From Cenococcum geophilum (taxonomy: Eukaryota), in the NCBI GenBank assembly GCA_050273025.1, contig CP158635.1, positions 20,460,001 to 20,524,000 on the forward strand: DNA of 64,000 bases. The letters are read 5' to 3'. Numbering within the stretch: the stretch's first letter is position 1; each line of letters begins with the position of its first letter. Position numbers and translations under genes: made by a program. Shown here in pieces: positions 7,832 through 64,000 of this stretch. The notes below the pieces were generated by a model. The model saw only the letters and a program-made list of their open reading frames with translations. It had not been told where the DNA came from and did not search any database.

Positions 7832-8255
7832 ACGTAATCCACAAGCAAGCTAGCACCACAAGCATCCTGGCACCCTTAAAACTCACTAAAAGTTTAAAAA
7901 TCCATACTTTAATATCTTAATAACCACTTAATAATAAATTCTAATAATTTATATTTGGATTTTCATATACATTTTGCAGCTTCTATTAAAGTTGCATAGC
8001 ACTTAATTTAGTAGTTTTTAAGATATTATAATTTGGGGGCCAAAATAAGCCAAATTACCGTAATACGACTATATCTTAAGAACCACTAAACTAATTACTA
8101 TGCAACTTTAATAGAAGCTGTAGAGTGTATATAAAAGTCTAAATCTAAATTATTAAAAATTATTATTAAGTGGTTGTTGAGATATTAAAGTGTAAATTTG
8201 GTGGGTTTTAAGGGTGCCAGGATGCTTGTGGTGCCAGCTTGCTTGTGGATTACGT
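7832..8255. mobile_element. Foldback MITE (pogo/Fot1-type ACGT termini) inserted in pol of Gypsy B
   Basis: ACGTAATCCACAAGCAAGC...GCTTGCTTGTGGATTACGT, TA on both sides; nearly the whole element is an inverted repeat around a ~40-bp loop. Confidence 0.9.
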
Positions 8256-9746: not shown

Positions 9747-10474
9747 TATTACGGGACACCCCCGTAATACCTTATACACGTTTACCTGTTTCTACTAACT
9801 TAGTAATTAAAGACTAACCGTAAAATAGCAATCTTATCCCTTGCACCGATGGCGTCCTATAAAATGTGGCCTATGCACGCAGTTAAGAACATCAAAACTT
9901 TCTTGCGCACGCTGTGGACAAAAAAGTTGGCGAGATGCCTGCACCGACCTCTCCCTACCTAAATTTGTATGCGCACGCATAAATGCACTTATGCAGCTTA
10001 TAGTAATTAATTTAGTCGTTATTTTAAGGAGTATATAGGCGAGATATAGTGGTAATAGGTGCATTCATGCGTGCGCATACAAATTTGGGGTTGGGTGCGG
10101 AGTCCTGGTAATGCGGCAGAACGACTTACCGCCCATATATAATTGGTGCGCACGGGCCACATTTTATAGGACGTTATTATCGGTGCAAGGGATAGCAATT
10201 TAATAGTAATCTAATAGCAAACTACGGCATTCTGCTATATTCTACCAAGTTTTACTAAATTTTATTAAGTTCTACTAGGACTATAACCTGAACCCTATTC
10301 TGCCTTATATACGTATTAACTAAGCAACCAAGTCAACAATATATGCCCTTTCTTCCCGTTTTCCTACCTTTTTCTCCTTACGCAACATCTTAACCTCCTT
10401 ATACAGTTTATATATATAGCTTAATAATATCTACCTTGCTATATATTATTGTTACTTATATTTACTCCGTAATA
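9747..10474 (+). repeat. 3' LTR of Gypsy B, interrupted by a MITE
   Basis: Direct repeat of 3716-4087 with a ~354-bp insertion at 9838-10191. Confidence 0.92.
9838..10191. mobile_element. MITE with CCCTT...AAGGG termini (piggyBac-like ends) inserted in the 3' LTR of Gypsy B
   Basis: ~45-bp TIR cccttgcaccgat..cgtcctataaaatgtggcc; absent from the 5' LTR; internal inverted repeat ~9958-9992 / ~10055-10090; flanks TAT|CCC...GGG|ATA. Confidence 0.88.
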
Positions 10475-10833
10475 AACAGGAAGTTAATAACGTAATAATA
10501 ACTAGTAGAGTAGTTACCTAATAGATTAACTCTAATTATATTCTAAAATTTACTATAAAAAAGAGAAACTATCTATAGAGACCGTATGTCCTTAAATATA
10601 TAACTCCTCCTTATAGTAAAGGGTTTAGTACGTTAGTATATTAGTATATTGGTATATTACATTCCTATATTCCTATATTCCTACATTTCAAACTTATAAT
10701 ATAACTAGCTATATAACTTAGCTACCCCTTATTTAATAGCTTAATCGGTTTTAGCGCCTCCTATACTATCTTAATTAACCTATTTATATCTATTCTTAGT
10801 AGTCGCACTACTACTAATATAAGGTCCGTAACA

Positions 10834-19600: not shown

Positions 19601-19772
19601 GGAATAAGGAGTTAGAGCAGTAACTTCTACCACATATTATCCGTAGATAGACGGTTAAACGGAAAGATTAAACTAGATACTAGAGTAGTATCTAAGGCAT
19701 TATATTAATTATATATAGAATAATTAGGTATCGCTATTACTAGTTATATAGTTTATATATAATGCAACACCT

Positions 19773-25045: not shown

Positions 25046-25610
25046 TATAATGCAACACCTTAAGAAGGTATAGGTATATTACTATTTAAGGCAAATTACG
25101 GATATAAGCTAAGAATATTATTATTACTATAATAAGCGAAGAAAATAAGTAGTATAGCTAAAGAGAGAATAAAGACGTTAATAAATCTTTATATAGACCT
25201 TATAGAATTAGTAAAGAAAGTATAAAAGAGAATAAAAAGGTACTATAATACTAAGAAATCTAAGGGACCAGATCTTAAGGAGGGAGATAAAGTATAGCTA
25301 CTATATAAAATTTTCAAGAGTTAACGATTAAGTAAGAAGTTAGACTATATTAGACTAGGACCTTTTAAAATTATAAAAAGAATTTTACCAGTTACGTTTA
25401 AGTTAAACCTACTAGCTAAAATAAAGATCTACCCTATATAGCATATCGTAATGCTAGAGCTAGCATACGGGAATATTAAGCTACTAGTTTATAAAGTAGA
25501 CATATATAAAGGGCAGGAAGAAGATAAATAGTAAGTTTTAAAAATCGTTAGTTATAAGGACATTAATAACAAAATATAGTATAAGGTTAAGTAAATAGGC
25601 TACACTAAGA

Positions 25611-26316
25611 CTACCTAGGAGCTACTAGAAAATTTAAAGAATGCTATAAGAAAGGTATAGGAGTATTAGAAGAAATTAGGTTAGGTAATATTAATAAAGA
25701 AGGATCGCTAAAGAATAAGTTACCTAAGGGGGACCTAAGAAGAGCAGTTGCCGAGCTACTTAGATCTATTTGATTCTCTATTAGAGAAAAATCTATTCTT
25801 TTATTACTAAGTTCCTATAAACCTTATTCTATAAGTTTCCACTCCTTAAAATAAACCTTCTTACGGACTTTCTTAAGACAGATTAACCAAGCGGACGCCG
25901 TAAGACGAGACTTAAGGGCCCGTTGCTAAGCATTAGTAGCCTCTTATTCTATATTATAGGAACGGCGTAACTTCGCTAGAGTAACAGACAGTTTATTATC
26001 TAGCCGCGTAGCAGTAGATTAAATACGAGACCCTAAGACAAACTAATTAGGGAACTAGACGACTATTAAGAGTAATAGGTTATATATATTTAGCATTAGA
26101 GATAGAGCGAACGTTATAGGACGAATAAACATTTACTTTAGTGTACTCTAAGTAAGAGGACAGTTATCGCGAAGATGGGTTTACTAACGCAATATAAACC
26201 AACCCCTCTTTTAAATAGTAAGAACATAGAGATGGTATAATTTTACCAAGAGACAGTATTATAGTAATAGTGCGAGTACGACGGACAGTTAAAGAAGAAG
26301 AAATTGCTTTAGGTAT
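25611..26316 (-). pseudogene. Antisense spliced accessory ORF of Gypsy C (Zn2Cys6-like plus coiled coil), RIP-inactivated
   Basis: Exon 1 26316-26088, 55-bp intron 26087-26033, exon 2 to ~25611; homologous and in frame with the copy D ORF. Confidence 0.7.
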
Positions 26317-27232
26317 AATAAGCAATAATATTAACTAAATTAATTAGACGGATATTATACTTCTAGTAAACAACTTAGAGATATTTTAAATCTTTAAGGA
26401 TAAAGATAGAAAGAAGGGAGATAGTGTTACGGACGCTTTAAGTACAATATTATAACTACTTAGAGAAGAGACGGAAGAAGCTAGTTAGTTAATTTAGGTA
26501 CGGTTTAAGATAGAGCCGATAGAGCTATGTAATAAGAAATAGTAACTAAGGTTATATAACGTGATCTATATAATCTATAGGATTTATATAATTTATAATA
26601 AAGTAGATAGAGTATATATATATTATATACAAGAAGGATTTTATAAGAGTACAGTTATATATTTAAGGACCCTTAGTCCCTACCTAAATAGTTCCTTCCT
26701 TATAGTAATTCTTAGAATATAATTAGAGTTAATCTATTGGGTAACCACTCCACCAGTTATTATTATATTATTGACTTTAACTTACATTACCTACACATCT
26801 AGCCCAATAACGAGCCTACCGTAGTTCCTACTATAAGGTTCCGTTACAGTTAAGATACTACTATAGATAACTTATCTTATATTAGCAGTAGTATCTAATA
26901 GGCTTTTAGGGGTTTTAGGGCTTTAGCCTTTTAGGAGAATTTTACTAAGGGGTCCTTTAGTACATTCCAAATTTAACTTAAAGTTTACTAGTTATATTAT
27001 AGTTTAAATTAAGACTTAATTATGGTATTGCAGTTATAAAAGTTATATTTTAATACTTTAATTTTTATAATGCAGATGCAAATAAGTTAAATTTACGTAA
27101 TGTTCTAACCTAAATAGGTAGGATCTAAGCCTGTTTAGATAGGGGTGTATATATATTAGTTAGGGGGTATATACGTATCATTTAGGGGGTGTATAATTAT
27201 TGTTAACCTAAATAAACTAACGAATTAAATTA

Positions 27233-37535: not shown

Positions 37536-39096
37536 CTACCTTCCTCCAGCCCCAACAGTTTCCTCAACAACCATTTCCCTCACCGATCCTACCTTTCCGG
37601 CAACTTGTAAAATGGCACCTTCAATGGCTTTCAGTGCCCCCACAAGCTCCCTCTGCTGATCCCTCCCACTTACGGCGTCACCGCCCCTAGCCATCATTAG
37701 CTCCTCAGTCCTTTGCATAGCGCCAGCTTCAACGGTTCTCAAGTGCGCCTCGATCTCGCGGATTTGGCGTCCGTATTCATCCAGTGTGTCACCTAGACCG
37801 TCTGCACGTTTCGAGAAGTAGCCAACGAGATCTACGGGTTTGCCGCTCGAGTCATCGTTAGCGCCGCTAAGAATTGCACTCGATCTTGGAGGCGCGGAGG
37901 GCGTGGAGCCGAGGCCGGTCATCCCCGCATAGTGGAACTGCTGCGGGAGTTTGAGGTTCTCGATGGCACGGAACGAGAGGCTTGCGTCGTCGGCGTCCTT
38001 CCTGCAGATGTCCTTCAAACGCCCTACGGTAGTGATGTCGTTATCGATTGCTAGTTCTACCGTGGCTACTCTGCCTTCTAAGAACTCGACATCTGGCGGA
38101 ATAGAGGTGACCGAGGCACTGTGCTTGGGAAGCATGCCTGAGCATTGAGTGCAGAAGTTGATTTGTTGCTGAATGAATTTATCAATGTCTTCTATTTGTG
38201 ATTGGAGAGACTCATGGAGGTCAGAGAAGCGTGTCGTGCCACGAATATTCGAAACGTCAATTTTGACGCCGGGAACAGTGCTAGTTGAACCAGAAAATGC
38301 TTGCGGCTGACTAGTGCTTTGGCCCAGAGTCAGGCTACCGCCAAAAGGGTTGGGCTGTGGATTCTGCTGTGCCATGCTGCCGAAGAGGGATGGTTGCTGC
38401 TGCTGGGGCTGCTGCTGGGGCTGCTGTGGTTGTTGAAGGGAGGAGCCGAACAAAGAAGGAGAGGGTTTAGGTTGAGTTGCAGTGGATCCGCTAGGAGGAA
38501 TGCTGTTAGTTTGTGGACAGATGCATATGAGTGAGGCAAGTGAATGCGGGTGGGGTCCCTTGCTTACAATAATGAGGGTGTGGCTGGCTTTTGCTGTTGG
38601 CCTAAATTCCCGAATAATCCACCAGATTGTTGGGATTGATTCTGATTCGGTTGTCCTAATGCTCCTCCAAAGAGGGAACTACTCTGTTGTGGCTGTGACT
38701 GAGTTGTAGAATTACCAAACAAGCCTCCCGTTTGTTGTTGAGCAGGTTTCTGTAGGTTGCCAAATAACCCTCCGCTTTGCTGCGGCTGTGATGTTGCGGG
38801 CTGACCAAATAATCCTCCAGTCTGTTGCGGTTGTGAGGTTGATTGTCCAAACATATTACCGCTTTGCTGAGGCTGGGATGTGTTTATTGAAGTGCCAAAA
38901 AGCCCAGCACTCTGCTGGCCCTGACTAACATTGGTGGAGCTACCGCTATGTAGAAGGCGCGAATTAGCAAAGTACCCTACTTATGGATTTAGATAGAGCT
39001 GCAGTGGTAACTTAGATAAAGCGATAAATTTCTTTCTTACAAGAGAGACCCTCCAGTGTTTATACTCAAAGAGTTTGACCTCCCAAAACCCGCCAT
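37536..39096 (-). CDS. NUP49: FG-repeat central-channel nucleoporin, Nup49/Nup58-like; exons 39096-39041, 38945-38568, 38490-37536 (462 aa)
   Basis: MAGFGRSNSLSINTGGSLF start, many GLFG/SLFG repeats, conserved VPGVKIDVSNIRGTTRFSDL and C-terminal coiled coil; GT-AG introns give a continuous 1389-nt frame. Confidence 0.85.
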
Positions 39097-40511: not shown

Positions 40512-40780
40512 GAGGCTCTGCACGAAGCTCTATATATAAATACTTTATACGAAGCTTTACGTATAGAGGCTCTATATAAGGCTCTATATAAAGCTTTACG
40601 TATAGAGGCTCTACGCGAAGCTCTATATACAGAGGCTCTATATAAAGCTCTGCATTAAGTCCCCGCTATATTCCCAATAACCTCTATATATACCTCTACC
40701 GCCTTATTTTTTACCCTTCCTTCCCTATATCCTCTCTACCTAGGGAGGCACTAGAACGGCAGCTAGCAAAGGACCGTTGC

Positions 40781-40993
40781 TAGAACTAGATAACTATCGC
40801 TAGAACTAGACGACCGTTACTAGAACTAGACAACTGTTACCAGAACCAGACGACCGTCGCCAAAGCCAGACGACCGTCGCTAGAACTAGACAACCATCGC
40901 CAGAACTAGACAACTGTTACTAGAACTAGACAACCGTCACTAGAGCTAGATAACCGTCACCAGAGCTAAATAACCGTCGCTAGAAGTAGACGA
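40781..40993. repeat. 20-bp minisatellite (~10.5 units, tagaactagacgaccgtcgc)
   Basis: Directly visible tandem units. Confidence 0.9.
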
Positions 40994-41049
40994 TAATAAC
41001 TAGCCAGCGAACACTATAAACAATTTAATTGATTAATTAAATTAAGGTA

Positions 41050-42787: not shown

Positions 42788-45700
42788 ATGGGTGGTTTTG
42801 AGAGAGAAAGATTCGTCGAGAGCAGTGAACTCAGAGGAGGGGCACCACATTCAACTGTAACGTCACAAAAAAGAGAGAGCTCGGCAGATGCAAGAGAGAA
42901 AGTGCTGGAAGTGAATTCGGCAGAGGATATGAACGGAAAAGATGAAAAGGATAGGCGCACCTATGGCAGGACTCCTGATGGCACAGGTGAGTAGCTTGCC
43001 GCGCCAGCTGCTTGTGCTGTTACGTCTAGTCGGATGCGACGAGGAACGTCTGCCAATTGCTCACTAGATATAAAAGAGCATGCGGTCAAATCAAGCAAAC
43101 TCCTTGTGGAGAATGATAAGTGCTGATTCTATTCTCACTTAACTGCAGTATTTACCGTTCCACAGACTCATGACATGGTCTCGCAGCTCCTATCACCAAC
43201 ACAACCAAAGAACATCTCGGACCTCATTGTACTTTCTGTACTTGCTCTGATGATACTCACTCTATACTGGCTACCGCCAAGCCTTCGAGTTCCTGCATTC
43301 GCTGTCATTTTCCTATTCTGGCGCGCTTCATACAATGCCGGCATTGGATACCTTCTTCAGGTTCAGTCTGACCACCGGCGTTTGGTCATATGGGCAAAAA
43401 ATTCAAAGATCTTTGAACATCCATCTAAAGGCAAAAACCCTCATCCCTGGATCTATGCCATTTTGAAGAAGGAAATGGAAACCAAAATCCCCACAGACTA
43501 CAAATTCGAGGAGGCACCAATTGAGTACAACACTTGGCTAGTCTTCAGACGAGTGGTTGATCTAATTTTGATGTGTGACTTTGTTTCTTACTCCCTGTTC
43601 GCCATAGCTTGCGGTGGTAGACCTGCGGGAGAAGGAGTGGCAATGACAGTTGCTCGCTGGGTTGCCGGGATTATCCTGGTGCTCTTTAATCTTTGGGTCA
43701 AACTAGATGCTCATAGGGTTGTTAAAGACTATGCCTGGTACTGGGGAGATTTCTTCTATCTCATCGACCAAGAACTTACTTTTGACGGCGTATTCGAAAT
43801 GGCTCCGCACCCAATGTACTCTGTTGGATATGCTGGGTACTACGGCATCTCTCTCATGGCAGCAAGCTACAAAGTCCTATTCATCTCCATCCTCGCTCAT
43901 GCTGCTCAATTCGCCTTCTTGGCTCTCGTTGAAAACCCTCATATCGAGAAAACATACAACTCACCGGCGCCCCGAAAGCGACTACCCAAGGACACTTCCC
44001 GAGAAGACGAACGTCCAGATTCTAGAAGTTCAGACTCCGGATTTGGAGATGGCCTCCCACCTTTCGGATCCACAATCCAACCCTCGCCAGTCCACAATCT
44101 TATTGGTTTGCAAAACATCGATTTTTATCGATCGATTGACGTGACGGTTCTGCTCTTTCAATTCTATCTATTCAGTTTTGCGGCAATGACCCCATCAACA
44201 GGCCTTTTCCAGACTTTCTTTGTTGCAAATGCTGTGGTCTGGCGCCTCTGGTACTCAATGGGCATTGGATGCGTACTGGATCGGCAGTCCAACAAGAAGG
44301 AATGGACTCGTCATTTCATCAAGTATGGTGACAGCGCTGAAGAAGCTTGGCGGCAGTGGAAGAGTCTTTATCATCTTAGCATGACCATGTGTCATGCTAG
44401 TTTCATCTGTGCTGCTTGGAAGATGTACTCCTCGCCACCTGATTGGGATTATGGGCTGGTGCTTCTACGTCACATCATCGGGGTTGCTATGGTAGCCCTC
44501 CAGCTGTGGACTGTCGTTAGCATATACGAATCACTTGGAGAATTTGGCTGGTTCTTTGGCGACTTCTTCGATCAATCACCTAACAAATTGACGTACAGTG
44601 GCATCTATCGTTTCTTGAACAATCCAGAACGATTTCTTGGTTTGGCCGGCGTCTGGGGCGTTGCCATCATTACATGGAGCAAGACTATCTTCTTCCTCGC
44701 ATTACTGAGTCATAGCCTCACTCTTGCTTTCATTCAGGTTGTCGAACGTCCGCATATGCAAAAACTCTATGGTGAAGCCCTGCGTCAGACCTCAGGTCTC
44801 TCTAAAAGCCTTAAGCGCTCGCTGCCATTACCGATCCGGCAATGGCATGGTAGCGTCGATCGCGTGCTCGGCGAAACCGTTGAATTCGTTGAAGAATTGC
44901 TTGAATCCGCACGCCCCAAGCTCGCCGCGGGTGTTGGTACATTCGTTAAAGATTCCACAGCACTCTTTAAGTCATACCCGGCACGTATCAGTATCACTCG
45001 CTTAGCTCCCGATATTGCGGGTTTAGATCTCAGAGATTATTCCATCGAGATTGAAGGCACGCCAAGCGCTGCAATCGCAGAGAAGGACAAGAGCAGCGGT
45101 CGTGAGAGCGAGATGGCGCGTCTGCCGGCCAAGCGTACAAGCGAGTTTCGGACACTAATGTTCGAGTATGGTGCACTAATTAAGGTGCGATGGACTGCGC
45201 CACTAAACCACAGCAAAAAGGACTGGATTGGGCTTTACATGGTGGCAGATAGTGCATCTAGGGATGTTACACGTGTTGCTTCTAACGGGCGCTGGATTGC
45301 TACGAACCGTGGTGTCTATGACTCTACAAGACCAGACCAGGGTATTTTGGTCAGCGATGATCTTATTCCGGCGAAAGACAGAAAGGATGGTGAGAATAGG
45401 GATTGTTATCATGGTGAGATGGAGTTTTCTGGTGACAAGATTTGGTGGACTTCTGGTGTCTTTGAGTTTCGATACCATCACGATGGGAAACACAACGTTA
45501 TGGCCATCTCTCTGCCTTTCGAGATCCGTATCGCTCGATTCGATGAGGAAGATGTTGAAGTTGATGCGAATGGTTTCATCAGAGGTGCTGTAGAGACTGC
45601 TTTACTTCCAGTAGTCAGGAACTGCTTTGATAGAGACCCGGAGATTGCGCCTAGCACTGTCGATGAGCCGTTTGGTAGTTTGGTCGGGAGGGATGGGAAG

Positions 45701-46041
45701 TATGCAAAGCGTGTAGTCTTTGCGGTACATCAAATGCAAGTTTTCTTTTTTTTTCTTTTTTTTTTTTAAAATGGAAAGTAAGCCGGTTAGAAGACCACTA
45801 ACATCTTGTAGGTTTGGCATCGAACTCGCGCCCGAGGTGGTGCAGGCTGATGGAAATGTCAAGAATCTTGCATGGCGAATATGTAACGCAAAGAAGGTCT
45901 TGGTATGCACTGTCTCCCCACCCTTTTGGCCTGCAGGTAGCTCCGCATCTAGTGTACGAACATGTTGACTAACGTAACCTCTAGGCCCCATACAGCATGT
46001 CACCGTCAAAAGGTAGAAACACGCCGACAGGTGGCGGATAG
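42788..46041 (+). CDS. CHO2: Phosphatidylethanolamine N-methyltransferase; exons 42788-42986, 43149-45735, 45812-45902, 45985-46041 (977 aa)
   Basis: [66 protein letters not shown] motifs; the splice model gives a continuous 2934-nt frame, with intron 2 as GC-AG. Confidence 0.95.
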
Positions 46042-47677: not shown

Positions 47678-50600
47678 TGTTACGGACGCTTTAAGTACAA
47701 TATTACGACTACTTGGAGAAGAGACGGAAGAAGCTAGTTAGTTAATTTAGGCATAGTCCAGAATGGAGCCAATAGAACCATGTGATGAGGAATAGTAACC
47801 AAGGTTATATAATGTGCTACGTATTAAACAAGAGGAATGAAAGGAACTTATATACCTTACGTATAAGACGTATATTATGTATAAGAAGGATTTTATAGGA
47901 GTATAGTTGTATATTTAAGGACCCTTAGTCCCTACCTAGATAGTTCCTTCCTAATAGTGATTCTTAGAATATAATTAGAGTTAATCTATTAGGCAACCAC
48001 TCTACCAGTTATTATTACGTTATTAACTTTTATACTTATATTTCCTATATACCTAGCCCAATAATAAGCCCATTATAGTTCTTACTATAAGGTTCTGTTA
48101 CACAATTACTACCTAGTTATAGTATTAATATAAGAAGTTAAATAATATGCTACTAAAAGCAGCCACTATAACGCTATTAACGGTAGCAACTACTTTAAGG
48201 ATAAGAGGTAACACTAGTATAGCGGATACTAACTTATAGCAACCTATAACGGTTAGACAGCTATAGGAAATAGTTAACTAGCTAACAGCTAATAATATAG
48301 TATTAGAAGAAAGACTTAACGGGATAAAAGCAGTAAAGATTAAGCTACTATTAATTAAGAGATTTATAGGAGAGAGGTTAAAGCTTAAAGGATTCCTTAT
48401 ATAGATGCATTTTAAGGTCTTACAGAAGGGAGTAAAGTTACCTACACCTATAGATCGGATAGCCTATATAGGACTATTCTTATTAGAAAAAGCACTTAAG
48501 TGGTTTAAACCTTACCTTATAGAGATATAGGTAAATAGAATAATAACCACTAACTAAGATATACGATTTATATTCTTAAGTTAGGAAGGATTTATAGAAC
48601 GACTAACGCAGATATTTAGAAACCTAGAAGAAACAACTATAGCGGAAAGAAAACTCTAGAACCTTATATAATAAACTTTAGCAATTAAGTATATAATATA
48701 GTTCTAGACACTAGTAATATAAGTAAAGTGGAATAATAGGGCGCTTATAGCATAGTATAAATAGGGACTTAAGGCTAAAGTTTAGGACGCGATTATCCTA
48801 ATAGAAGATGCGGATACCCTAAGGGAACTAATAGATTAGGTAATTAAGATTAATAATTGGATTTACTAAAGGGAATAGGCTAAGAGAGGCTAGGATAGAG
48901 TTCTATAGTTATATAAGGCGCAGAGTACGTAATAATAAAAGCTAAGTTAGAAACTATGGTACGGCGCAGAGCTAATAGACTTAAGTAGTACTAAAAAAGC
49001 CTATAAGAGATGGAGTAAACTATAAAAACCTAGAGAACAAGGATTAAGTAATTAAAGGTCTAAGGAGTAGAGGCTAAATTAGGGATCTTAACAGCAGAAG
49101 ATATTTAGGCGGACTCTATAACAAGAAAAATGGTTTAAAGAAGGAGCTTATATAAATTGCGGAAAATAGGGTTATTATATTAGAGATTATAAAAGTGGGT
49201 AGAGTTACTATATAGTAAAAGGTATAAGACTAGTAGACAATATATATGTATAAAGGGATAATAATATGCTATAAGGAATAAAAGAGTGTTTAATTAAAAG
49301 TTTTACGTTTTATTACAATAACGTATACTAAATTTATAAGGACGCTAAGTACGGCGCAAGCTATTAGCTATAAGAGCTAGCACCTATAGAATATAGAGGA
49401 ACTAATAAACTAGTTCACAGATCGGATATTAAGGACGATGAATTTAACTTAGGCGAAATATTCTATAATGATAAGGCAATAAGGGCCGCTTACTAGGAGC
49501 AAGCAGACCTTAGAGATATTATACTAGAGGTAGAGGATGATTCTATTATAGAATAAGGAATATTAGTAGGGATTAAAAACCCACTAGACATAATATCTAT
49601 CGCTTTGCGAGACGTAAGAAAAGTAGGATAGCGAACTACTTTAGTACTTAATAAAGACAAAAGGCCAAAGGCTTAAGATTCTTAAGATAAGATAAGAGAT
49701 AACTAAGATTCTTAAGATAAGATAAGGTAAGCTTAAGGACCCATAACAGACAGAAACCAATAGAGTAGAGCAGCAGCTTAGTTTAGAACTATATAAATGA
49801 GCTTAGGATAAAGTTTCCCACAAGTATAAGACTCTTAAGACGAGATAAGTGAGATTTAAGACTTTTAAGACGAGATAAGAATACTACAAACGCCTAGTTA
49901 GACTAAGGCGGGAGCTAAGCTTAAGTTAGAAGCAAGCTTAGGATTAAAGAATCTAAGGGGTTAAGAATTCAGGGTATAAATTAGGACACCCATAGATAAA
50001 AGGCAAGGAGCTTCTTTATAGATTAGAGAATCTACGGCATAAATAGTAATTAGACTGGGAGACGAATATATAAACCTAGAGGATTTACTAGTTAAATAAA
50101 GTATTTAGACTAAAGATTAAAAAGTTAATACTAAGATTAAGAAGTAAGATAACTTTAAGGATTAGAGCGCAAGGCGCAAACTAAAAGAAACCATAGAAGA
50201 GTTTAGGCAAAGAATTATTACATAGCAAGAATAGAAACTAGATAAGAGATCTAGTATATTAGGACGTATAAAGGATAGAGCACTAGTATAAAGAATCACT
50301 AATAGGCTAAGAGCAGGCATACTAAGAGCTAAGTGGCTTACTAAACTAGAAAGTAAAGAGGATCTAGGGATTTTAACTAGGTTCGAAGAACAATATATAA
50401 AGGGCTATTATAATGCAGTAATAAGAAGATACTTCCTTATGGACAAGCCGTATATACTCTAGCAGCTATACTAAAAGTGGTATAGGTAAAGACGCAATGA
50501 TAAGTAGAAAGATTTTTATATATAGTTAAATGAAAAAGTTATCTAGGACCACCTGATTACAGAGAAGGCTATAATGTATATTAAAGGAGCCTTAATTATA

Positions 50601-53600
50601 ATGTTAAAGGATCTAGAGGAACATTTAGAGGACTAAAGAAGTAAGAGGCGCATCTTAATACCTGCGAATAAAGTTATAATGTTTAGATTAGCACGATAAA
50701 GGTTTAAACTTAAGGATAAAGACGAGCTAAGAGTTAACCTAAAGCACCTAGCACACTATATAATATTATAGATTGCGTATATAGACAATATATGCGAAAT
50801 ATATAAGAATCTAAAAGAAAAGAATTAGAAATACCCTATAAGGATATACTAAATAACGGACGAGTAATAGTATAGGAATACCAAATATATATATAGATGG
50901 CATCCAATAAAAATCTAAGAGGAAGGAAGTTTAGTACTTTAACTAGGAAGATTCCTTACGGAGGAATACTTAGATGGATAATAGTAATGGGAATACCTAG
51001 AAAATATATGTCTATAGTATATTAAAGATAAAAAGCGAACTAGGTATTAGCTAAAGAGTAAGCTAAGTATACTAGGATTAAGCAGCTAATAGTTAGGAAA
51101 AGTAGAGGCCTATAGAACCAGAGGGAGCCAATAGTAGAGCCTTAGACCCTTAAAGGAATTTAAGGACAACACCTAAATTTATAGATTAATTGGCAAGATT
51201 AGTAGTTTAAAGCGCTAATAGATAGTAAAGTAACGCGAAACTATATCTTACTAGTAGTAGTTAAGAGAATAAGGCTACCTTATAGATAAAAGGAGTAATT
51301 TTACCTATTAGTTATAATTTTAGGAGATCTAATAACCTATAGAGGAGGGATTATTAATCTTAAAATAGGACCTATTTAGATAACTATTAAAGGGAGACAA
51401 ATTAAGATGTCTTTTAATATCCTACTATTGGGACAGAATAAGGTAGTATTAGGCATGCCTTAGTTATAGGAATATAATCTAAGGATTAATTAGATTATAG
51501 GTTAGGTCAATATTAGAGATATTTAATGCTATAAAATGTGATAATAAGCCAAGTTGGTATAATACTAAGTAGGAGCAACCTATAAAGAAATAGAAAAAGG
51601 ACTAAGCTATATACTAAAGAGATACCATAAGTACGGCAAGAAACTATAGTTACCGAAAAGTAAAAAGCTATTAGAATATATAGCATAGGACTATAAAATA
51701 GAGTTAGAACTAGGAATAAGTCTAAAGTTCTTTTCAATCTATAAGCTTACTAAAGAAGAGGGTAAAGCGTTAAAAGAGTTTATCTAGGAAAATCTATAAA
51801 AGGGATATATTAGACCATCGCAATCATTAGCGGGTTATCCAGTACTATTTATACTAAAGAAGAATAGTAAACTAAGGCTATATATTAACTATAGACAGTT
51901 AAATAGCATTACTAGGAAGGATAGGTATCCTTTACCCTTAATTAGCGAAATTTAAGATAGGATAGGTAATACGCAAATCTTTATAAAGATAGATCTAAGA
52001 TAGGCGTACTATTAGATTAGGATTAAGGAAGGTAACAAATAAAAGGCAGCTTTTAGGTTAAAGGAAGGACTATATAAACTATTAGTTATATAATTTGGGC
52101 TTATAAATGTATTAGTAATATTCTAGAAGCGTATTAATAATATATTAGGAGAATACTTAGATAAATTTATTATAGTATATCTTAATAATATTATTATCTA
52201 CTTAATAACTAAGGAAGAATATAGGGAACACGTTAAATGGGTCTTAAAGAGACTATAAAAAAAATAGATGCTAATAGTAATTAAGAAATATAAGTTCTTT
52301 ACTAGGAAGACTGATTTTATTAGATTTATTATTAAACTAGGCTAACTTAGTATAGATCTAAAGAAGATTAAGGCTATAGTAAATTAGTAGGAACTAAAGA
52401 ACATTATACAGTTAAGATTATTTTTAGGGTTTTATAATTACTGTAAAAGGTTTATAGCGCAGTGGTTAAAGGATATTAAGCCATTTACGCGGTTAATAAA
52501 GAAAGAAGAACTATAGGTATGGGGAAAAGAGCAAAAAGAACTCTTTAAGAAAGTTAAAGAGTTATTTACCTAGGAGCCAGTTCTTAAGATCTATTAACCA
52601 GGACTAGAGATAGTTGTAGAAATAAATGTATTAGACTATATACTAGGGGCATACTTTATATAAAGGCATTAAGACGGATAGCACCTAGTGGCATATTATA
52701 GTCGGAAGATAATACTACTGGAGTTAAACTATAACATCTATAACAAAGAGTTATTAGGTATAGTTATAGTATTAAAGGAATAAAAAGCATTCTTACAAGG
52801 CATAGAGAAACTATTTATAGTTAAAACGGATTATAAGAACCTAATAGGATTCCTAATAATAAAGGAACTTAACCGAAGACAGGTTAGATGGGTAGAGATA
52901 CTTATAGAATACTATTTCGAGATTTAGTATACTAGAGGTATAGATAATATGAGGGTAGATACTCTAAGCCGTAAAGCTAAACTATAAAATAAGGAAAAGC
53001 CATTAGGGGCTTTATTGCGAAAAGATATAGACGGATTGATTAGGTATAATTATCCGAAAATCGTAGTAACTTAAGAAGATGATGAACTAGAGAAAGTCTA
53101 TAAGATACTAGAAAGCTTTTGGGTATAAAGAATTCTAAAAGTATAGCTAGAAGATCTATAGACGGATATATACAAAAATTGAAAAGTAAAGTATATCCTA
53201 AGAAGTATAGTAGAGCAGTTTGTGGAGGACTTCTATAAGGGACTAACTTAAGGATATAATAGAGCTATAGGCTTAGTATTAAGACTTTAAAAGGAGTATA
53301 TTATTAATAGAATCTAAAGGATAGCTAGGAAGGTTACTAAAAAGTATCTAGATTATTAAAGGAATAAACCGATAAGGTATAAGCTATATAGAGGGCTATA
53401 ACCTATTAAAATACTAGAGAGACTATAGGAAGTTATATTATAGGACTTTATTGTTAAGTTGCTAAAATTAAAAGACCCTATTACTAAATAAGATTATGAC
53501 GTGATCTTAGTAATAGTAGATAAGCTTACGAAGTAGGGATACTTTATAGCATACACAGAAGAAATCTTAGTAAAAGATATCGCTAGAATTTATGTTAAAG

Positions 53601-55628
53601 AAGTATTTATAAAATATAGAGCACTAAGCAAGATTATATCGGATAGAGATTTAAGATTTATAGCAGTATTTTAAGAAGTATTCTTAGCGAAGCAAGGAGT
53701 TTAAGCAGTAACTTCTATTATATATTATCTATAGACAGATAGTTAAACGGAAAGGTTAAATTAGACACTAGAATAGTATCTAAGGTATTATGTTAATTAT
53801 ATATAGAACAATTAGGTATTGCTATTACTAGTTATACAGTTTACATATAATATAACACCTTAAGAAGGAATAGGTATATTACTATTTAAGGCAAATTATG
53901 GATATAAGCTAAGAATATTATTATTACTATAGTAAGTAAAGAAAATAAGTAGTACAGCTAAAGAGAGAATAAAGATATTAATAAATCTTTATATAGACCT
54001 TATAGAATTAGTAAAGAAAGTACAAGAGAGAATAAAAAAGTACTATAATGCTAAGAGATCTAAGGGACCAGATCTTAAGGAGGGAGATAAAGTATGGCTA
54101 CTATATAAAAATTTTAAGAGTTAATAACTAAGTAAGAAATTGGACTATATTAGACTAGGACCTTTTAAAATTATATAAAGGATTTCATTGGTTACGTTTA
54201 AGTTAAACCTACTAGCTAAAATAAAGATCTACCCTATATAGTATATCGCAATACTAGAGCCAGTATATAGGAATGTTAAGCCACCGGTTTATAAAGTAGA
54301 TATATATAGAGGATAAGAAGAAGATAAATAGCAAGTTTTAAAGATTATTAATTATAAGGACATTAATGATAAAATATAGTATAAGGTTAAGTAGATAGGC
54401 TATATTAAGACTACCTAGGAGCTACTAGAGAATTTAAAGAATGCTATAGGAAAGGTACAGGAGTATTGGAAGAGATTAGGTTAGATAGTATTAATAAAAA
54501 AGAATCGCTAAAGAACGAGTTATCTAAGGGGGACCTAAGAAGAGCAGTTACCGAACTACTTAGATCTATTTCCTTCTCTGTTAGAAGAGAATCCGTTCTT
54601 TTATTACCTAGTTCCTATAGACCTTATTTTATAAGTTTTTACTCCTTAAAATAGACCTTCTTATAAACCTTCTTAAGATAAAGCAGATAAGTAGATGCCA
54701 TAATTTAAGTATCTAGGGCCTTCTGTTCTGCGTTATGGGAATGTTTTAACTTAATAAGGGCTTGCGATAGTTTACTATCTAGCTGCGCAGTAGTAGATTA
54801 AATACGAAACCCTAAGATAAATTAATTAGGGAACTAGACGACTATTAAGAGTAATAGGTCGCGTATATTTAGCATTAGAAGTAGAGTGAACGTTATAGGA
54901 CGAACAAATATTTGCTTTAGTACACTCTAAGTAAGAGGACGGTTATTGCGAAGATGGGTTCGCTAACGTAATATAAACTAACCCCTCTTTTAAATAATGA
55001 GAATATGGAGACAGTATAATCTTACTAAGAGATAATATTGCAGCAATAGTGCGAGCACAACGTTGGGCGTGTAAAGAAGAAATTGCTTTAGGCATAATGA
55101 GCAATAATATTAACTAAATTAATTAGATAGATATTACACCTCTAGTAAACGACTTAGAGATATTTTAAATCTTTAAGGATAAAGATAAAGAGGAGGGAGA
55201 TGGTATTATGGACGCTTTAAGTATAATATTACGACTATTTAGAGAAGAGACGGAAGAAGCTAGTTGGTTAATTTAGGCACGGTTTAGAATGGAGCCGATA
55301 GAACTATGTAATAAGAAATGGTAACTAAGGTTATATAATATGCTACGTATTAAATAAAAGAAATAAGAGGAACTTACGTACCTTATATATAAGACGTATA
55401 TTATATATAAGAAGGATTTTATAGGAGTACGGTTGTGTATTTAAGGACCCTTAATCCCTACCTAGATAGTTCCTTCTTAGTAGTAATTCTTAGAATATAA
55501 TTGGAGTTAATCTGTTGGGCAACCACTCCACCAGTTATTATTACGTTGTTGACTTTTGTACTTGCATTTCCTACACACCTAGCCCAATAACGAGCCCATT
55601 GTAGTTCTTGCTATAAGGTTCCGTTACA
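47678..55628 (+). mobile_element. Full-length Ty3/Gypsy chromovirus copy D (family 1), RIP-inactivated
   Basis: LTRs 47678-48102 and 55204-55628 (425 bp); TSD TAATT (47673-47677, 55629-55633); gag ATG 48147; protease, RT, RNase H, integrase and chromodomain colinear with copy C. Confidence 0.95.
54411..55095 (-). pseudogene. Antisense spliced accessory ORF of Gypsy D (Zn2Cys6-like plus coiled coil, ~209 aa), RIP-inactivated
   Basis: Intact ATG at 55095; exon 1 55095-54867, 55-bp intron 54866-54812, exon 2 to ~54411 (true stop uncertain). Confidence 0.72.
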
Positions 55629-58274
55629 TAATTATAGGTAGTAGATTAACTCCGTTACTACTTATCGTTTCTATTATAATAACTAGCTCGCGATTTGTAT
55701 CTGTAGAGATATAAGCTTTTTAATAAGGCTCCCTTATAATAATCTACTAGTTCTTACTAATACCAACGCGGAATCCTAACTTATTAAAGTTATATATATC
55801 TATGGGCATAATTGCATACTTAATTATAATGTCGCGGTATTAATAAAACTACGCCTTAATATCCTTTAGCTCGTGTACCGCTGTGCGCTTAAGCTCCATT
55901 ATCTTCTACCTACGCTTATAATACTCTAGGTGGCGGCTAAGCCAGCGTTTAACAAAGTAAGAGCTAATAGGAGGTGGTGGCTAATCCGGATTTTTGTTAG
56001 CTTAATTTAAGATCTAATTTACTGCAGAACGTATTATTAGTAGTTAAGCGGCGGTATATAAGGAATCTAAGTAATTAATATAGCTACAAAGAGCAAGGTC
56101 TTAATCGTTAGTAAGCCTTCTACCTACTATAGGCCTCTCGCAACGCGATTAACGTCCTTTCCACCGAGCGCGGAGGCATGATTTAGGAACATCGTGTCGG
56201 CGCGCAGCCTCTGCAACATTGGGCTTAGTAGACTCTTGGAGTTCTTTAAGAGCCTCCTAGATCTTATTTTCGACGCGAATATACTCAGTAGTCATGGCGT
56301 TAATAATATATAATAAGAATATTGATAGTATTTGGGTGTCTTGGCAAATCTGACGTTGAGGTGGGCTCTACTCGTTGAGCTGGCCGGCACTTACCTCGGT
56401 AACGAGGTAAGTGGGTCGCGACAGCGGCACGGGTACTCTGCGAGGCGCCGCATGAACTTATTTGGGTGCTGCTGCCTTTGCTTGATGTCTACGAACTGCC
56501 TGTGAGTATGCCCGCACTCGCGCCCGCGCCTGCACCCGCACCCGCGCCCGCGCCCGCGACCATACCCACGCGTAGTATACCCGGTATTCTGTTCGAATGC
56601 TGATGGCTCGTGACGAGTCGATGTATTAACGCAAACAGAGCCAGCCGGGCGGCCGCGGAGGCGCTTAACAGTTAGAGGCTGGGGTGGGAATAGGTAAGGT
56701 AAATTTGATTTTCGCGATGCAGATGCAAACAACTTAAATTCACGTGATATTCTAACTTAATTAGGGAGGACCTAAACTCAATCAGTGGGGGGTGTCCGCG
56801 CATCAATTGGGGGGTGTCTGTGTATCAATTAAGGGGTGTCCCGCTACCGCTGTCCCTCGATTATCTGATACCGATTAAGGTATGGATTCAATCTTCATAT
56901 TTTTTCAAGGATAATGTTTCCTAATCACAGTTCCTTGATCGATAACTTGCTAAATGAGTCGGATTTTGTTCTCCTTTAGTGGCTCATGCCAGCTCTGCGA
57001 AGTCAGCCAGGGTTCTTTCTGAGTCATAGGGAAAGTTGTAAGCTAGATTGAGATAGCTGGACTTGGTGTTGAGAGATTGGTTGAACAGCTTTGTTTCCAG
57101 GGGCGCCCCCTGGGCACCCAGCCGATCCATAAGCCCGTAGCGGCCGCTAAACCCATGGGGCCTTGATTACGAAATATTCGGGATAACTACAAATGACTTT
57201 TTCCAAGATCAGAGCATTGCTCCAGGAAGTAGGTAGAACGGCAAGTTCAAAGACGTGAGTCAAAATCCCACGCGCGCTCGACCGCAAGTTCTGCGCTTCT
57301 ACACGCACAGTAACACCATAAACGTCGGCTTCCGTCTTACAGCAATCCTTGGCACCCCGGTTCAAAACGTACAAGGGGGTACCACGAACAGGGCAGATGC
57401 CTCCCTGCCAGTATGTTTCAAAATAAGCGAGCCCTTGCAAAATGGTTGGGCTGTATTATTCTGCTAGCATACTAGCAGGGAGGGCGTCTGCCCGTACGTG
57501 TTACCCCCCTGTATTTGTCAACCCTTGTCCGGCGCTGCTCATGACGATATCGTTGCTGCACCCCACACGCCACTAAAATCAAGAGACCAATTCCACAGAC
57601 GGCTAACCCCGGAGGCACAAGCGGCAAGCAGTATCGGGCAATGATTCGATAATCTTCTCCCCAAGTGGTCTGCCTGCCCTTGCATAGCTCGACCATATGA
57701 AGCTCTCTTTTCTCTGTCCACGATCTCCCGAAGCCAGGTGCGAGCGGTAATTGCATCCGTGCTCGTTGTGCAAGTCTTCAACGTCATCTGAGATGGGCAG
57801 ATGCGAGGCACTTTCAGTGTGTTCGGAATCCAGTAGGTGGAGTTTCCTACAGATCTACCCTATGTAGGCAAAGCTTCTGGGGACACGCCTTCGCACCACA
57901 GACGACCATTGTATGCGTTGATACCCAGCTCCACTGATATCTCAGCTGAAATATTTCTAATCCATGCTTGGCATACTAAAAGAGGCTGCGCGAGCACGTC
58001 AGACGCTCCCCTGCCGGCGTGTTTGCGGGGTAGCGCTTTATCAAAGGCCTCGCCTATTTTGAAAACTATACTAGCAGGGAGGGTGACTGCTCCGTTCGCA
58101 GTAACCCAAGCCCCCCTTGTGGACGAATGCTTATCAGCATCTTCCGAACGGCCCTTCGGCATATACACTGTGTTAATCACGGCTCGTCTAATTTACTTTC
58201 CATAAATACTCCGTCGGCTTCGTGCAATCTGCGTCGTCAAGCACGCAATACTTCTATATCCACATTCTTTCACA

Positions 58275-61237
58275 ATGGCCATTGAAACACCTCTACCTGG
58301 GGTTGGCCAGAAGACTGCCAACAAAAACAAGCTCACTGCTTCAATCTCAGGAATCAATATTCTTGACATTCGACACGCCCCCGGCAAGTTCGACACCCTC
58401 GTCGTCATTCGAGAAGGGCTTCGACCTGAGCATGGAGGGGAGAAAACTTTACCAACTCTTTTACTATATGACCAAATTGGATTGAAGCTCTTTGAAAAAA
58501 TCACATTCTTAGAGGAGTACTATCTCACAAATGCGGAGATCGAGGTTTTAGAGACTTACGCGGGTCGAATTGCTCAACGTATTCAGCCCGGGTCCATCAT
58601 CATCGAGCTTGGAAGCGGGTAGGAGCCTGCCTTCCGGATATTGACAGGACTGATAGTGGTGGAAGTCCACGGTACTAATACTCGCATAGCAATCTCCGAA
58701 AAGTCAGCATTCTCCTGCAAGCCGTTGAACGTCTTGAAAGAAATGTTGAATATTATGCTCTCGACCTCGATCTTGATGAGTTGAAGAGAACTCTTTCTGC
58801 CATTCCAACCGGCGGCTATCAGCACGTAAAGTGCTTCGGTCTATATGGCACTTACGATGATGGTTTGAATTGGCTTGCATCTCCTGAAATCAGCAACAAG
58901 CCTAAGACCGTTCTCTGGCTTGGCTCAAGCATCGGCAACTTCAAAAGACATGAAGCAAAGGCTTTTCTAGGCCGATTCGGCGATGCACTTCAGCTTGGAG
59001 ACGCAATGTTAATTGGTATTGATGCTTGCAAAAATCCAGATAGAGTTTTCCATGCCTACAACGATAAGAAAAATTTCACCCATGAGTTTATCCTGAATGG
59101 CCTCTCTCATGCCAACCGAATTTTGGGCCAGACAAACGCTTTCAAGCCAGGTGAATGGGAGGTGATTGGGCAGTTTAATGAAGAGGCTGGGTGTCATCAG
59201 GCTTTCGTCTCTCCTTTACTTGATGTTGTAGTTGATGATATATCCATTCCTCGAGGAGAGAAAATCCGTATCGAAGAGAGCTACAAATATTCTGCTTCCG
59301 AGACGGAGCAGCTATGGGAGAGCACTGGTCTCGTTGAAGGTTCCAGGTGGACTAACAAGAAAGGAGACTATGGTAAACTCTCTTTTTTTCTTCTCCTGGT
59401 TTTTTTTTCCTTCTCCTCTTCGTCTTTCCCGCCCTTTAAACCGAAATATCAGTTTATATCTCGGGTCATTTCTTTCCGATGTCAGCTTTACTCCGGTACT
59501 AAATTGGACATTCGATAACACCTTTTCTAGGACTACATCTGGTGTCCAAACCACGGGTGTATTTTCCTCTTTATCCCGAGGCATATGCGAATAGGCCTGT
59601 TCCCACTATGTCTGATTGGGATGGACTTTGGGTTGCGTGGGACGCTGTGACGCGGGACATGATTCCAAAAGAAGAGCTTCTTTCTAAGCCAATTAAGCTT
59701 CGCAATGTCTGCATATTCTATTTAGGTCATATCCCTACCTTTCTGGATATCCACATTACCCATGGAACACACGGTAAACCCACGAATCCAAGTTATTATC
59801 GCCAGATCTTCGAGCGTGGTATCGACCCAGATGTGGATAATCCAGAATTGTGCCATTCACATAGTGATATCCCAGACAGCTGGCCTCCGATAGAGGATAT
59901 TCTGAAGTTTCAGCATGCAGTCCGCGAGCGAGTCAGAAAGTTGTACGAATCTGGAATTTCACAAACAAATCGTCGTGTTGGACGAGCGCTTTGGATTGGT
60001 TATGAACATGAAATTATGCACTTGGAAACACTTCTTTACATGCTCGTACAAAGTGAGAAAATTTCGTCTCCACCCGGCACTGCCGTTCCAGATTTTGAGG
60101 CTCTGGCCCACCAGTCCTCTATGAATGCTGTTCCAAATGACTGGTTCATTATCCCAGAGACAGATGTTATACTCGGCCTCGATGATCCTGAGACGGACTC
60201 TGGCCCTGACCGCTACTTTGGATGGGATAATGAAAAGCCGAAACGCAGCGCTCATGTCCGTTCATTTTCCGCAAAGGCCAGGCCTATCACAAACAGAGAA
60301 TACGCAAACTACTTGACGCAGACTGAGTCCAAGGCTCTTCCAGCCTCTTGGTGTGATACTCCTTATACTGTGGGTTGCCGAGATGGCAACAAAAACGTAC
60401 CTCCCGTTAATGGCAGCAACGGACATACCGACGGCATCGTTCAAAACAGATACGTAAGGACGGTGTTCGGAGCTGTCCCTCTAGAATATGCTTTTGAATG
60501 GCCTGTGACAGCTTCCTATGACGAGCTTATTGGCTGCGCAACATGGATGGGGGGACGCATTCCGACCATGGAGGAAGTCCGGAGTATCTACTCCTACGTG
60601 GATCGGATGAAGTTGAAAGAAGTGGAACAAGCCCTTGGAAGGACTATACCAGCTGTGAATAGGTAGAGTTCGTTATAATCCCCCATTCTATCCATCTTCT
60701 AATATTTGCAGTCACTTGGTCAATAATGGTGTGGAAGAGTCGCCGCCATTGCAGTACTCAACAAACTTCTCCAACACAGTATCCAGTCCTAAGCTGCGTG
60801 ATATCTTCATCAATCTGGAAGGAACGAATGTTGGCTTCAAACACTGGCACCCAGTTCCTGTCACTCAGAACGGTGGTAGACTATCCGGTCAGGGGGATAT
60901 GGGAGGAGTGTGGGAATGGACTAGCACTGTATTGGAAAACTACGAGGGATTTAAGGCCATGGATTTGTATCCAGGCTACACAGGTATCTTTCAGGTACTT
61001 TTCTTGGAGTACCCCTAAACTGATTCGCTGTAGCTGATTTCTTTGATGGAAAACACAACATCGCACTTGGCGGGTCATGGGCTACCCATCCGAGAATCGC
61101 AGGCCGTAGGACTTTGTGAGTAAACTCGCTTGATCTTCGCGGCTAGGTCACTTATGGTACCTAAAACTAGTGTCAACTGGTATCAACGCAACTATCCCTA
61201 TGTTTGGGCTGGTGCTCGCCTGGTTCGCGACATCTAA
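58275..61237 (+). CDS. EGT1: Ergothioneine biosynthesis protein 1 (EgtD-like His methyltransferase fused to EgtB-like sulfoxide synthase); exons 58275-58618, 58690-59372, 59531-60662, 60712-60983, 61034-61115, 61171-61237 (859 aa)
   Basis: LPTLLLYD..GLKLFEKIT..EYYLT, IELGSGNLRKV, WLGSSIGNF, FYLGHIPTF, FERGIDPDVDNP, EHEIMHLETLLYM, FGWDNE, GGVWEWT, NWYQRNYPY; GT-AG introns give a continuous 2580-nt frame. Confidence 0.95.
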
Positions 61238-63109: not shown

Positions 63110-64000
63110 TGTTACGGACCTTATATCGGCAGTAGTACAACTACTAAGGAAAGACATATATGGGTTAGTTAAGATAGTACGGGAGGCATTGGAACCGATT
63201 AAGCTATAGAATAGGGGGTAACCAAGTTATATAACTAGTTATGTTATAAGTTTAAAACGTAGGAATATAGGAATATAGAAACGCGATATACTAATGTACT
63301 AATATACTAACGTACTAAACCCTTTACTATAGGGAGGAGTTATATATTTAAGGACACACGGTCTCTATAGATAGTTTCTCTTCTTTATAGTAAATCTTAG
63401 AATATAATTAGAGTTAATCTATTAGGTAACTACTCCACTAGTTATATTTACGTTGTCGGCTATTTTATACCTATATACCTAGCCCATTAACAAGTCTACC
63501 GTAGTATTTCCTATAAGGCTTCGTTACACATTTACTACTAAGGTTATAGTAAAAGAAGCTAAATAACATGCCACTAAAAGCAATAGCCATAACGCCGTTA
63601 ACGGTAGTAACTATATTAAGATTAGGTAACAATACTAGTATAGTAGACACTAACTCTTAGCTAATTACTATTAGACAGCTATAGGAAATAGTTAATTAAT
63701 TAATAGACAATAATAGGATACTTAAAAAAAGAATTAATGGAATTAGAACAGTTAAGGTTAAGTTACCCTTAATTAAGCAATTTTTAGGGGAGAAGTTAAA
63801 GCTTAAAGGATTCCTTATATAAATGCACTTTAAGGTTATATAAGAAGGAGTAAAACTAGGGACGCCTATAGATTAAGTCGTTTATATAGGACTATTCTTA
63901 ACAGGAAGAGTACTTAAGTGGTTTAAATCTTACCTTACGGAGGTATAGGAATACGGCATAACAACTATTAACTAGGAGGTATAATATATATTCTTAAGTT
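63110..64000 (+). mobile_element. Ty3/Gypsy copy E (family 1, same LTR subtype as copy A): 5' LTR 63110-63528 and gag start; continues beyond the window
   Basis: TGTTACGGACC...TCGTTACA LTR; gag ATG ~63568 homologous to copies C and D. Confidence 0.9.

Follow-up and report, generated by a model that had tools for sequence, protein, structure and literature searches.

The window analyzed here is a stretch of 64,000 nucleotides of Cenococcum geophilum DNA (assembly GCA_050273025.1, contig CP158635.1, positions 20,460,001 to 20,524,000 of the forward strand). Its subject is a small gene that lies antisense to the end of pol in a Ty3/Gypsy retrotransposon, two copies of which, designated C and D, are compared throughout. 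Copy D is a complete Ty3/Gypsy element that has been degraded by repeat-induced point mutation (RIP). On the plus strand, it comprises a 5' long terminal repeat (LTR) at 47678-48108, which begins TGTTACGG and is 88% identical to the 3' LTR at 55204-55634; a RIP-degraded gag-pol region at 48300-54481, recognized from Pfam domains in plus-strand frames and closed by a TAG stop codon at 54482-54484; and, immediately 5' of the 3' LTR, a polypurine tract at 55181-55203 (AAAGATAAAGAGGAGGGAGATGG), which was identified by eye. The 3' LTR was placed by comparison of the LTRs, and one spliced RNA contig extends into it, to 55213. RVT_1, RT_RNaseH and RT_RNaseH_2 scored above their Pfam cut-offs, whereas SH3_Tf2-1 (27.2 bits, cut-off 30) and Ty3_capsid (17.3 bits, cut-off 29.1) stayed below theirs; RVT_1, RT_RNaseH and SH3_Tf2-1 fall together in the plus-strand frame at 47681, and Pfam found no pol domain on the minus strand of the copy. 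The Ty3/Gypsy assignment is based on the paired LTRs, the polypurine tract and the order reverse transcriptase, RNase H, integrase on one strand. The final ca. 60 codons of pol have the look of a chromodomain when judged by eye only, and a Pfam search of the RIPed pol tail gave no Chromo match. Copy C (13616-26848, with its 3' LTR placed at 26425-26848 by the same comparison) is the same element, interrupted in pol by a 5.3-kb plus-strand LINE-like (long interspersed nuclear element) non-LTR retrotransposon at 19773-25045, which carries Exo_endo_phos_2 and RVT_1 domains.

In copy D, the antisense gene occupies the minus strand between pol and the 3' LTR. Exon 1 (54867-55095, 229 nt, with its ATG at 55095-55093) was defined by reading of the open reading frame (ORF) and by 105 protein relatives. 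It is followed by a 55-nt phase 1 intron (54812-54866), whose donor now reads AT in place of an ancestral GT and whose acceptor is AG, and by exon 2 (54447-54811), predicted to encode a long helix and a C-terminal tail. A six-cysteine motif in exon 1 (54895-55005; codons 31, 34, 41, 55, 58 and 67) now reads Y-Y-Y-Y-C-Y. The corresponding features of copy C, also on the minus strand, are exon 1 at 26088-26316, a 55-nt intron at 26033-26087 and exon 2 at 25647-26032, which includes a 21-nt insert and is closed by a stop codon at 25646-25644. These structures agree with a preliminary description of the locus, in that the minus-strand frame starts 108-109 nt from the 3' LTR boundary (at 55095 in D and 26316 in C), the 229-nt exon and the 55-nt intron, with its AT start and ctaat...cttag end, are present in both copies, and the copies differ by a 21-nt indel in exon 2. 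The same description had carried the gene to 54411. We place its end at 54447 instead, because the TAG at 54446-54444 is conserved in the 79-copy alignment introduced below (T in 79, A in 79 and G in 78 copies) and less mutated relatives terminate at the same stop, ending ...PIPFL. The antisense coding sequence, through its last 12 codons and stop, overlaps tail to tail with the final codons and stop of pol (54444-54484, both strands), and the room from the pol end to the 3' LTR is ca. 720 nt. Because the pol stop TAG reads CAG in 8 of the 79 related copies, the ancestral pol frame may have extended further into the antisense gene than it does in copy D.

Both copies are now RIP-killed pseudogenes. 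Each has six in-frame stops, a donor changed from GT to AT and five of the six cysteine codons changed to tyrosine, and copy C has in addition lost its start codon (ATG to ATA). The stops in D fall once in exon 1, at codon 51, which is CAA in 50 of the 79 copies, and five times in exon 2. In the raw sequence of D, the exon 1 frame contains this single stop versus four to nine in the other five frames, and the exon 2 frame five versus 6 to 14 in the others. Besides the exon 2 indel, 134 transitions and 22 transversions separate the two copies over ca. 960 nt. A Pfam search of the raw exons from the window gave no match.

With such damage, the frame could be a chance opening in AT-rich RIPed DNA in which tyrosine codons have been over-read as cysteine; TAT is common in DNA of this kind. 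Stop counts do not decide the matter. In 300-nt bins of copy D and of a merge of the two copies they are too coarse to discriminate, and on a "least-RIPed" family call several exon 1 frames are stop-free and one stop is left in the exon 2 frame; because aggressive de-RIPing opens several exon 1 frames, such counts alone are not discriminating. Transversions and indels, on the other hand, are RIP-free markers, because RIP makes only C-to-T and G-to-A changes. These were scored in an alignment of 79 copies, namely the 77 of 104 BLAST pieces with near full cover of the 821-nt region, plus C and D, with a transversion polymorphism counted when its minor class comprised at least three copies. The polymorphisms at codon positions 1, 2 and 3 number 11, 4 and 26 in exon 1 (p = 1e-4) and 20, 17 and 44 in exon 2 (p = 3e-4). 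Position 2 of exon 1 is the least variable, as expected with coding on the minus strand. The intron shows no codon periodicity (5, 4 and 3); pol, as a positive control, gave 23, 9 and 55 (p = 5e-9), and the LTR, as a negative control, gave 20, 34 and 24 (p = 0.14). Seven indels recur in two or more copies, and six of them have lengths divisible by three: one of 21 nt (33 copies), two of 3 nt (23 and 13 copies), one of 6 nt (6 copies) and two of 12 nt. The seventh is a 1-nt insertion in two copies. The joined coding length is a multiple of three in 70 of the 79 copies.

Relatives were sought with exon profiles in which stops had been replaced by X. Searched against the protein collection, these returned ORF fragments, 105 related to exon 1 and 17 to exon 2, and an exhaustive HMMER search gave 227 representatives at E ≤ 1e-3. 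Of 623 pattern matches in metagenome contigs, 611 encode relatives; sequence was retrieved for 79 loci. One relative, P0300, is an intact, un-RIPed protein of 239 amino acids. The selection on a protein that had been suspected from copies C and D alone is thus evident across the family, as a third-position excess of transversions together with in-frame shared indels in subfamilies that differ by 11-28%, and not as the frameshifts or neutral pattern of a non-coding stretch. What stands on the other side is that every one of the 79 aligned copies carries at least three stops, so that none is intact, including both copies in the window. Taken with the six-cysteine relatives and the RNA-library junction described below, the codon-position bias, the in-frame indels and the intact ORF refute the chance-frame explanation, to which we give next to no weight. 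An intron-bearing accessory gene antisense to gag-pol is real at the level of the family.

The gene also belongs to the element, because its neighbors are fixed. Among 84 related copies of the ORF region, the end of pol adjoins in antisense in all 71 that have downstream room, and the LTR adjoins in 72 of the 76 with upstream room; the linkage to Gypsy pol left open by the preliminary description is therefore complete in this sample. The gene might nonetheless be a passenger, a piece of a host gene that one Gypsy lineage has picked up and that has no role for the element, and the clusters of 190-215-amino acid Ascomycota proteins in the ESM Atlas could be host genes. Against a passenger stand the fixed position and orientation just given, the codon-level constraint and in-frame indels across diverged subfamilies, and the interlocking of the end of the gene with the pol stop. 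We regard a captured fragment as improbable.

The cysteine motif could be read through RIP by means of its codon spectra. In all 79 DNA copies, the six proposed cysteine codons are only TGT, TGC, TAT or TAC. Six arginine sites examined alongside show CGY, TGY, CAY and TAY, and at four of them also some CGA/CAA-type codons and stops; the same contrast is seen in the 105 protein fragments. Since RIP cannot convert TAT to TGT, the ancestral residues at the six positions were cysteines. All six are kept in P0300, P0196 and P0233, and these proteins, like the family columns, have the spacing C-x2-C-x6-C-x13-C-x2-C-x8-C that had been proposed from the two window copies, with cysteine and not tyrosine at the ambiguous positions of the intact relative. 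Against this uniformity stands the nearly un-RIPed P0167, which has tyrosine at Cys-3. Within the window, one TGT is left in each copy, at Cys-5 in D and at Cys-1 in C, and the other four positions are TAT or TAC, as described before. Copy D also has TGT at amino acids 13 and 64, which the earlier account had not listed, and both are arginine codons by comparison with the family. Two exon 1 relatives, P0226 and P0149, depart from the gene after the cysteine motif, where a different common sequence, ...SPSPTSRWKYLVVYSI..., replaces the intron and exon 2.

The intron is 55 nt long in every one of the 79 copies. Its donor is GT in 4 and AT in 75, and the survival of GT equals that of TGT at Cys-3 (4 of 79 each); the two sites have in common a TpG, the context that RIP prefers. 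The acceptor is AG in 74 copies, and 77 have TGG as the codon that spans the exon junction. We considered a donor 6 nt farther downstream (C|GT) and discarded it, as its T is A in 25 of the 79 copies, including copy D. In P0300, the ORF is continuous across the predicted junction (...SDAEW|SRV...), as it is in the 138-amino acid P0268 (...SNAEW|SQV...). BLASTP aligned exon 1 of copy D with residues 32-100 of P0300 (E = 4e-15) and exon 2 of copy C with residues 102-238 (E = 3e-20), so only the junction tryptophan is left between the two alignments.

RNA-library contigs show the same junction. One contig from a metatranscriptome (X18 record 3) aligns with 54990-54867 of copy D, where its match to that copy stops; its next 30 letters match 26003-26032 of copy C, the first bases of exon 2, with three mismatches, and 0 matches were obtained in 100 shuffles. 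Upstream, this contig extends to 55213, within the 3' LTR. The match of another RNA-library contig (X19 record 14) is likewise interrupted at 54867, and the contig's lengths would fit removal of the intron together with the 21-nt insert (97 + 228 = 325); set X20 is apparently the same data as X19. Unspliced contigs exist too (X19 record 13). Several points limit what these sequences say of splicing at this locus. RNA libraries can hold DNA, yet the intron is present in all 79 DNA copies; the source contigs of P0300, P0268 and P0167 could be cDNA or otherwise; and the similarity of the RNA contigs to copy D is only 83-90%, which places their origin in other copies and not in the window's own. 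Of the raw RNA reads in set X22, 21 were placed, 20 of them less than 90% alike, and those in the ORF region are all first mate on the plus strand; this orientation would mean minus-strand RNA if the library was made with dUTP, but the library type is unrecorded and the reads are not used as support. In related copies, then, there is a spliced antisense RNA whose start lies at the inner edge of the 3' LTR or farther out. The GT donor, the splice junction and the transcription from the 3' LTR region that the preliminary description had predicted are each found in the family, in the four copies that keep GT, in the contig whose sequence passes from 54867 straight into the start of exon 2, and in its extension to the inner LTR edge, respectively. 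In a separate observation, the summed depth of two RNA-library contig sets over 55204-55300 of the 3' LTR is ca. 1100, versus 10-30 internally; this excess suggests abundant LTR-only transcripts or solo LTRs.

The existence of an antisense spliced RNA leaves room for the idea that the RNA itself matters, for example by pairing with genomic RNA into double-stranded RNA for silencing or regulation, and that the reading frame is incidental; double-stranded RNA-mediated regulation is raised as a possibility in the discussion of antisense transcripts in PMC7264820. An incidental frame is hard to reconcile with a third-position excess of transversions as strong as that of pol (26 of 41 in exon 1; 55 of 87 in pol), with in-frame shared indels and conserved cysteine codons, or with an intact ORF of 239 amino acids. 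We consider an RNA-only role very improbable, and a protein-coding gene remains the preferred reading.

The layout of an antisense gene in this place is itself already known. In Boty-like elements of Botrytis and Sclerotinia, pol and the 3' LTR are separated by an extra gene, brtn, encoded on the opposite strand, according to the passages on these elements in PMC8365987, PMC7264820, PMC4227169 and PMC5987419, which cite Zhao et al. 2011 (Virology 417:248) as the source study. The two systems, compared by description only, are alike as fungal chromovirus-type Gypsy elements that carry an antisense gene in this position. A transcript from Monilinia is described as matching both a chromodomain-bearing truncated Pol and BRTN (PMC5987419), which fits the close neighborhood of the antisense gene with the pol end here. 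The present family differs in that it comes from other sources and comprises more than 600 RIPed copies, and none of the protein matches to the antisense gene is named BRTN.

In plants, the same place and orientation are occupied by the antisense ORFs called aORF-3R, which include Grande1 gene23, RIRE2, Retand ORF4 and PvRetro13 ORF2. The review in PMC7264820, in its treatment of these genes, describes them as conserved within families and suspected of a nuclear or regulatory role, with varied domains such as SMC and transposase 28, and calls for study of antisense spliced transcripts. The gene described here shares their position between pol and the 3' LTR, their opposite strand, coding conservation and, in related copies, an antisense transcript; it differs from those described there in that they belong to plant lineages, have other domains and show no sequence relation to it. 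Grande is noted for an unusually long 3' internal region, as the title of a study cited in PMC7264820 puts it, whereas here the spacer measures only ca. 720 nt, with the pol stop overlapped by the antisense gene.

The product is predicted to be a protein of ca. 200 amino acids, with a short basic N-terminus, a basic six-cysteine motif, a linker of ca. 7 residues, one helix of ca. 100 residues and an acidic, probably disordered C-terminal tail with the conserved end ...NTP-I/V-PFL. AlphaFold, run with family alignments, places a helix at residues 98-199 of P0300, with a predicted local distance difference test score (pLDDT) of 94-98, beginning 7 residues after Cys-6, and at residues 47-109 of P0167 with a pLDDT above 93; confidence in the tail is low. 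The net charge of P0300 is +5 in the cysteine domain and -5 in the tail. Exon 2 had been taken to encode a helical coiled coil. The long helix holds, but the coiled coil finds no backing in a single-register heptad test, which gave a non-significant result (the observed value was matched or exceeded in 271 of 2000 shuffles), and the helix is rich in E, A and R. The structure may instead be a single alpha-helix.

Assignment of the motif to the Gal4-type Zn(II)2Cys6 class, as first proposed, was not borne out. The Pfam model Zn_clus (PF00172, cut-off 21 bits) gives P0300 only 8.1 bits (E = 4), and among 100 members the best score is 14.1 bits (E = 0.052), with all matches sub-threshold. No other Pfam family matched P0300 above its cut-off either, the family profile has 0 matches at E ≤ 10 among PDB sequences, PPR1 (1pyi_A) aligns with P0300 at E = 4.4, and a Foldseek search with the P0300 model had no match below E = 7.3. 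The weak matches of P0167, P0030 and P0055 lay the first three cysteines on the second half of Zn_clus, and that of P0300 covers profile positions 2-31. The cysteine domain has a pLDDT of 50-60 in both AlphaFold runs, with its fold predicted at 53-58.

Other observations draw the motif toward that class. The consensus of Zn2Cys6 domains is C-x2-C-x6-C-x5-12-C-x2-C-x6-8-C, so that the x13 middle loop is one residue too long and the other spacings fit. Zn_clus is the most recurrent Pfam family and the only recurring zinc family among the 100 members (7 of 100, all sub-threshold), and the nearest ESM-Atlas cluster (score 0.92, 213 of 256 features, with a 204-amino acid representative from Ascomycota) is auto-named "Zn(2)-C6 fungal-type domain-containing protein." Gal4-type factors have a linker and a helix after a basic cysteine cluster. 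The protein resembles them in its six cysteines at near-canonical spacing, basic segment, short linker, helix and fungal family, and differs in its Zn_clus scores of 8-14 bits versus 21, its x13 loop, its length of ca. 200 amino acids and a fold that is not confidently predicted. The cysteine motif probably binds zinc. That the protein is a Gal4-like DNA-binding factor we hold tentatively, at somewhat below even chances.

The same gene could also encode something other than a transcription factor, such as a zinc-binding accessory of retrotransposition (a nucleic-acid chaperone, for example, or an adaptor that serves nuclear import or integration) with a zinc ribbon or treble-clef-type site and the helix as a spacer or single alpha-helix. 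We read the two pairs C1-x2-C2 and C4-x2-C5, 20 residues apart, as fitting a four-cysteine knuckle pair, and the sub-threshold Zn_clus scores of every member, the missing PDB matches, the non-significant heptad test on an E/A/R-rich helix and the varied domains of the plant antisense ORFs are all compatible with such a protein. It accounts less well for a spacing that is the Zn2Cys6 pattern save for one loop residue, for the recurrence of Zn_clus as sole zinc family and the automatic name of the nearest cluster, and for the Gal4-like succession of basic domain, linker and helix. An accessory protein of this kind is a serious but doubtful alternative.

Overall, we think it highly likely that this Ty3/Gypsy family carries a genuine accessory gene, antisense to gag-pol, with pol on one side and the polypurine tract and 3' LTR on the other. 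The gene consists of a 229-nt exon 1, a phase 1 spliceosomal intron of 55 nt and an exon 2 of ca. 365-390 nt, and the intron persists through retrotransposition because only the antisense RNA presents its GT-AG in sense. The product may be a nucleic-acid-binding nuclear factor, probably oligomeric, acting like a retroviral antisense regulator on the element's own expression or integration; autoregulation, targeting and anti-silencing, the roles offered in the preliminary description, stay conjectural here along with DNA binding. HBZ of human T-cell leukemia virus type 1 (HTLV-1) is a regulator of this sort, a spliced antisense product of ca. 200 amino acids expressed from the 3' LTR, with DNA-binding-type and helical oligomerization regions. 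It is a basic leucine zipper (bZIP) protein of a human retrovirus and not a cysteine-motif protein, and in the absence of homology it serves as a working analogy only. Carried further, many ascomycete chromoviruses would be "complex" retrotransposons that express from the 3' LTR an antisense, spliced zinc-cluster DNA-binding factor, a fungal counterpart of HBZ whose binding to the element's LTR or to host chromatin would adjust transcription, silencing or integration; this larger proposal is speculative and, in its entirety, rather unlikely.

Reports of antisense accessory genes in LTR retrotransposons go back decades, and the passages of PMC7264820 that deal with them give no known function for any. 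The present family offers a tractable case, with a small protein made of a clear cysteine motif and a long helix, hundreds of copies, intact relatives and direct evidence that the transcript is spliced. Should the product bind DNA, the element would encode its own regulator, relevant to the negotiation between fungus and transposon over silencing and genome expansion. For annotation, the gene indicates that genes of this kind, short, antisense and interrupted by an intron, systematically escape notice within RIPed repeats, and the contrast of Tyr/Cys with Arg/Cys/His/Tyr codon spectra provides a simple readout of ancestral residues through RIP.

Across the window as a whole, nests of RIP-degraded retrotransposons are interspersed with gene-bearing stretches. 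Where housekeeping ORFs lie, the G+C content is 44-47%. The RIP index TpA/ApT is 1.56-1.79 in the elements versus 0.83-1.13 in gene regions, and (CpA+TpG)/(ApC+GpT) is 0.36-0.52 versus 1.06-1.22; the thresholds used for comparison are general background values. A second Gypsy family ("B") lies on the plus strand at 3700-10620, with RVT_1, RNase H, Integrase_H2C2 and SH3_Tf2-1 domains, LTRs at ca. 3810-4083 and 10197-10470, and ca. 450-500 nt between the pol end and the 3' LTR. It is nested in a third, minus-strand copy of the C and D family (21-3711 and 10481-10605), and the start of a further copy of that family, with LTR and leader, occupies 63338-64000 and continues past the end of the window. 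The host genes include a Nup49-type FG nucleoporin (37536-38980, minus strand), a phospholipid methyltransferase (PEMT; 43127-45769, plus strand) and an Egt1-like ORF set with Methyltransf_33, DinB_2 and FGE-sulfatase domains (58206-60666, plus strand). A tandem array of ca. 14 copies of a 20-nt unit was found at 40747-41026, in a gene-poor spacer.

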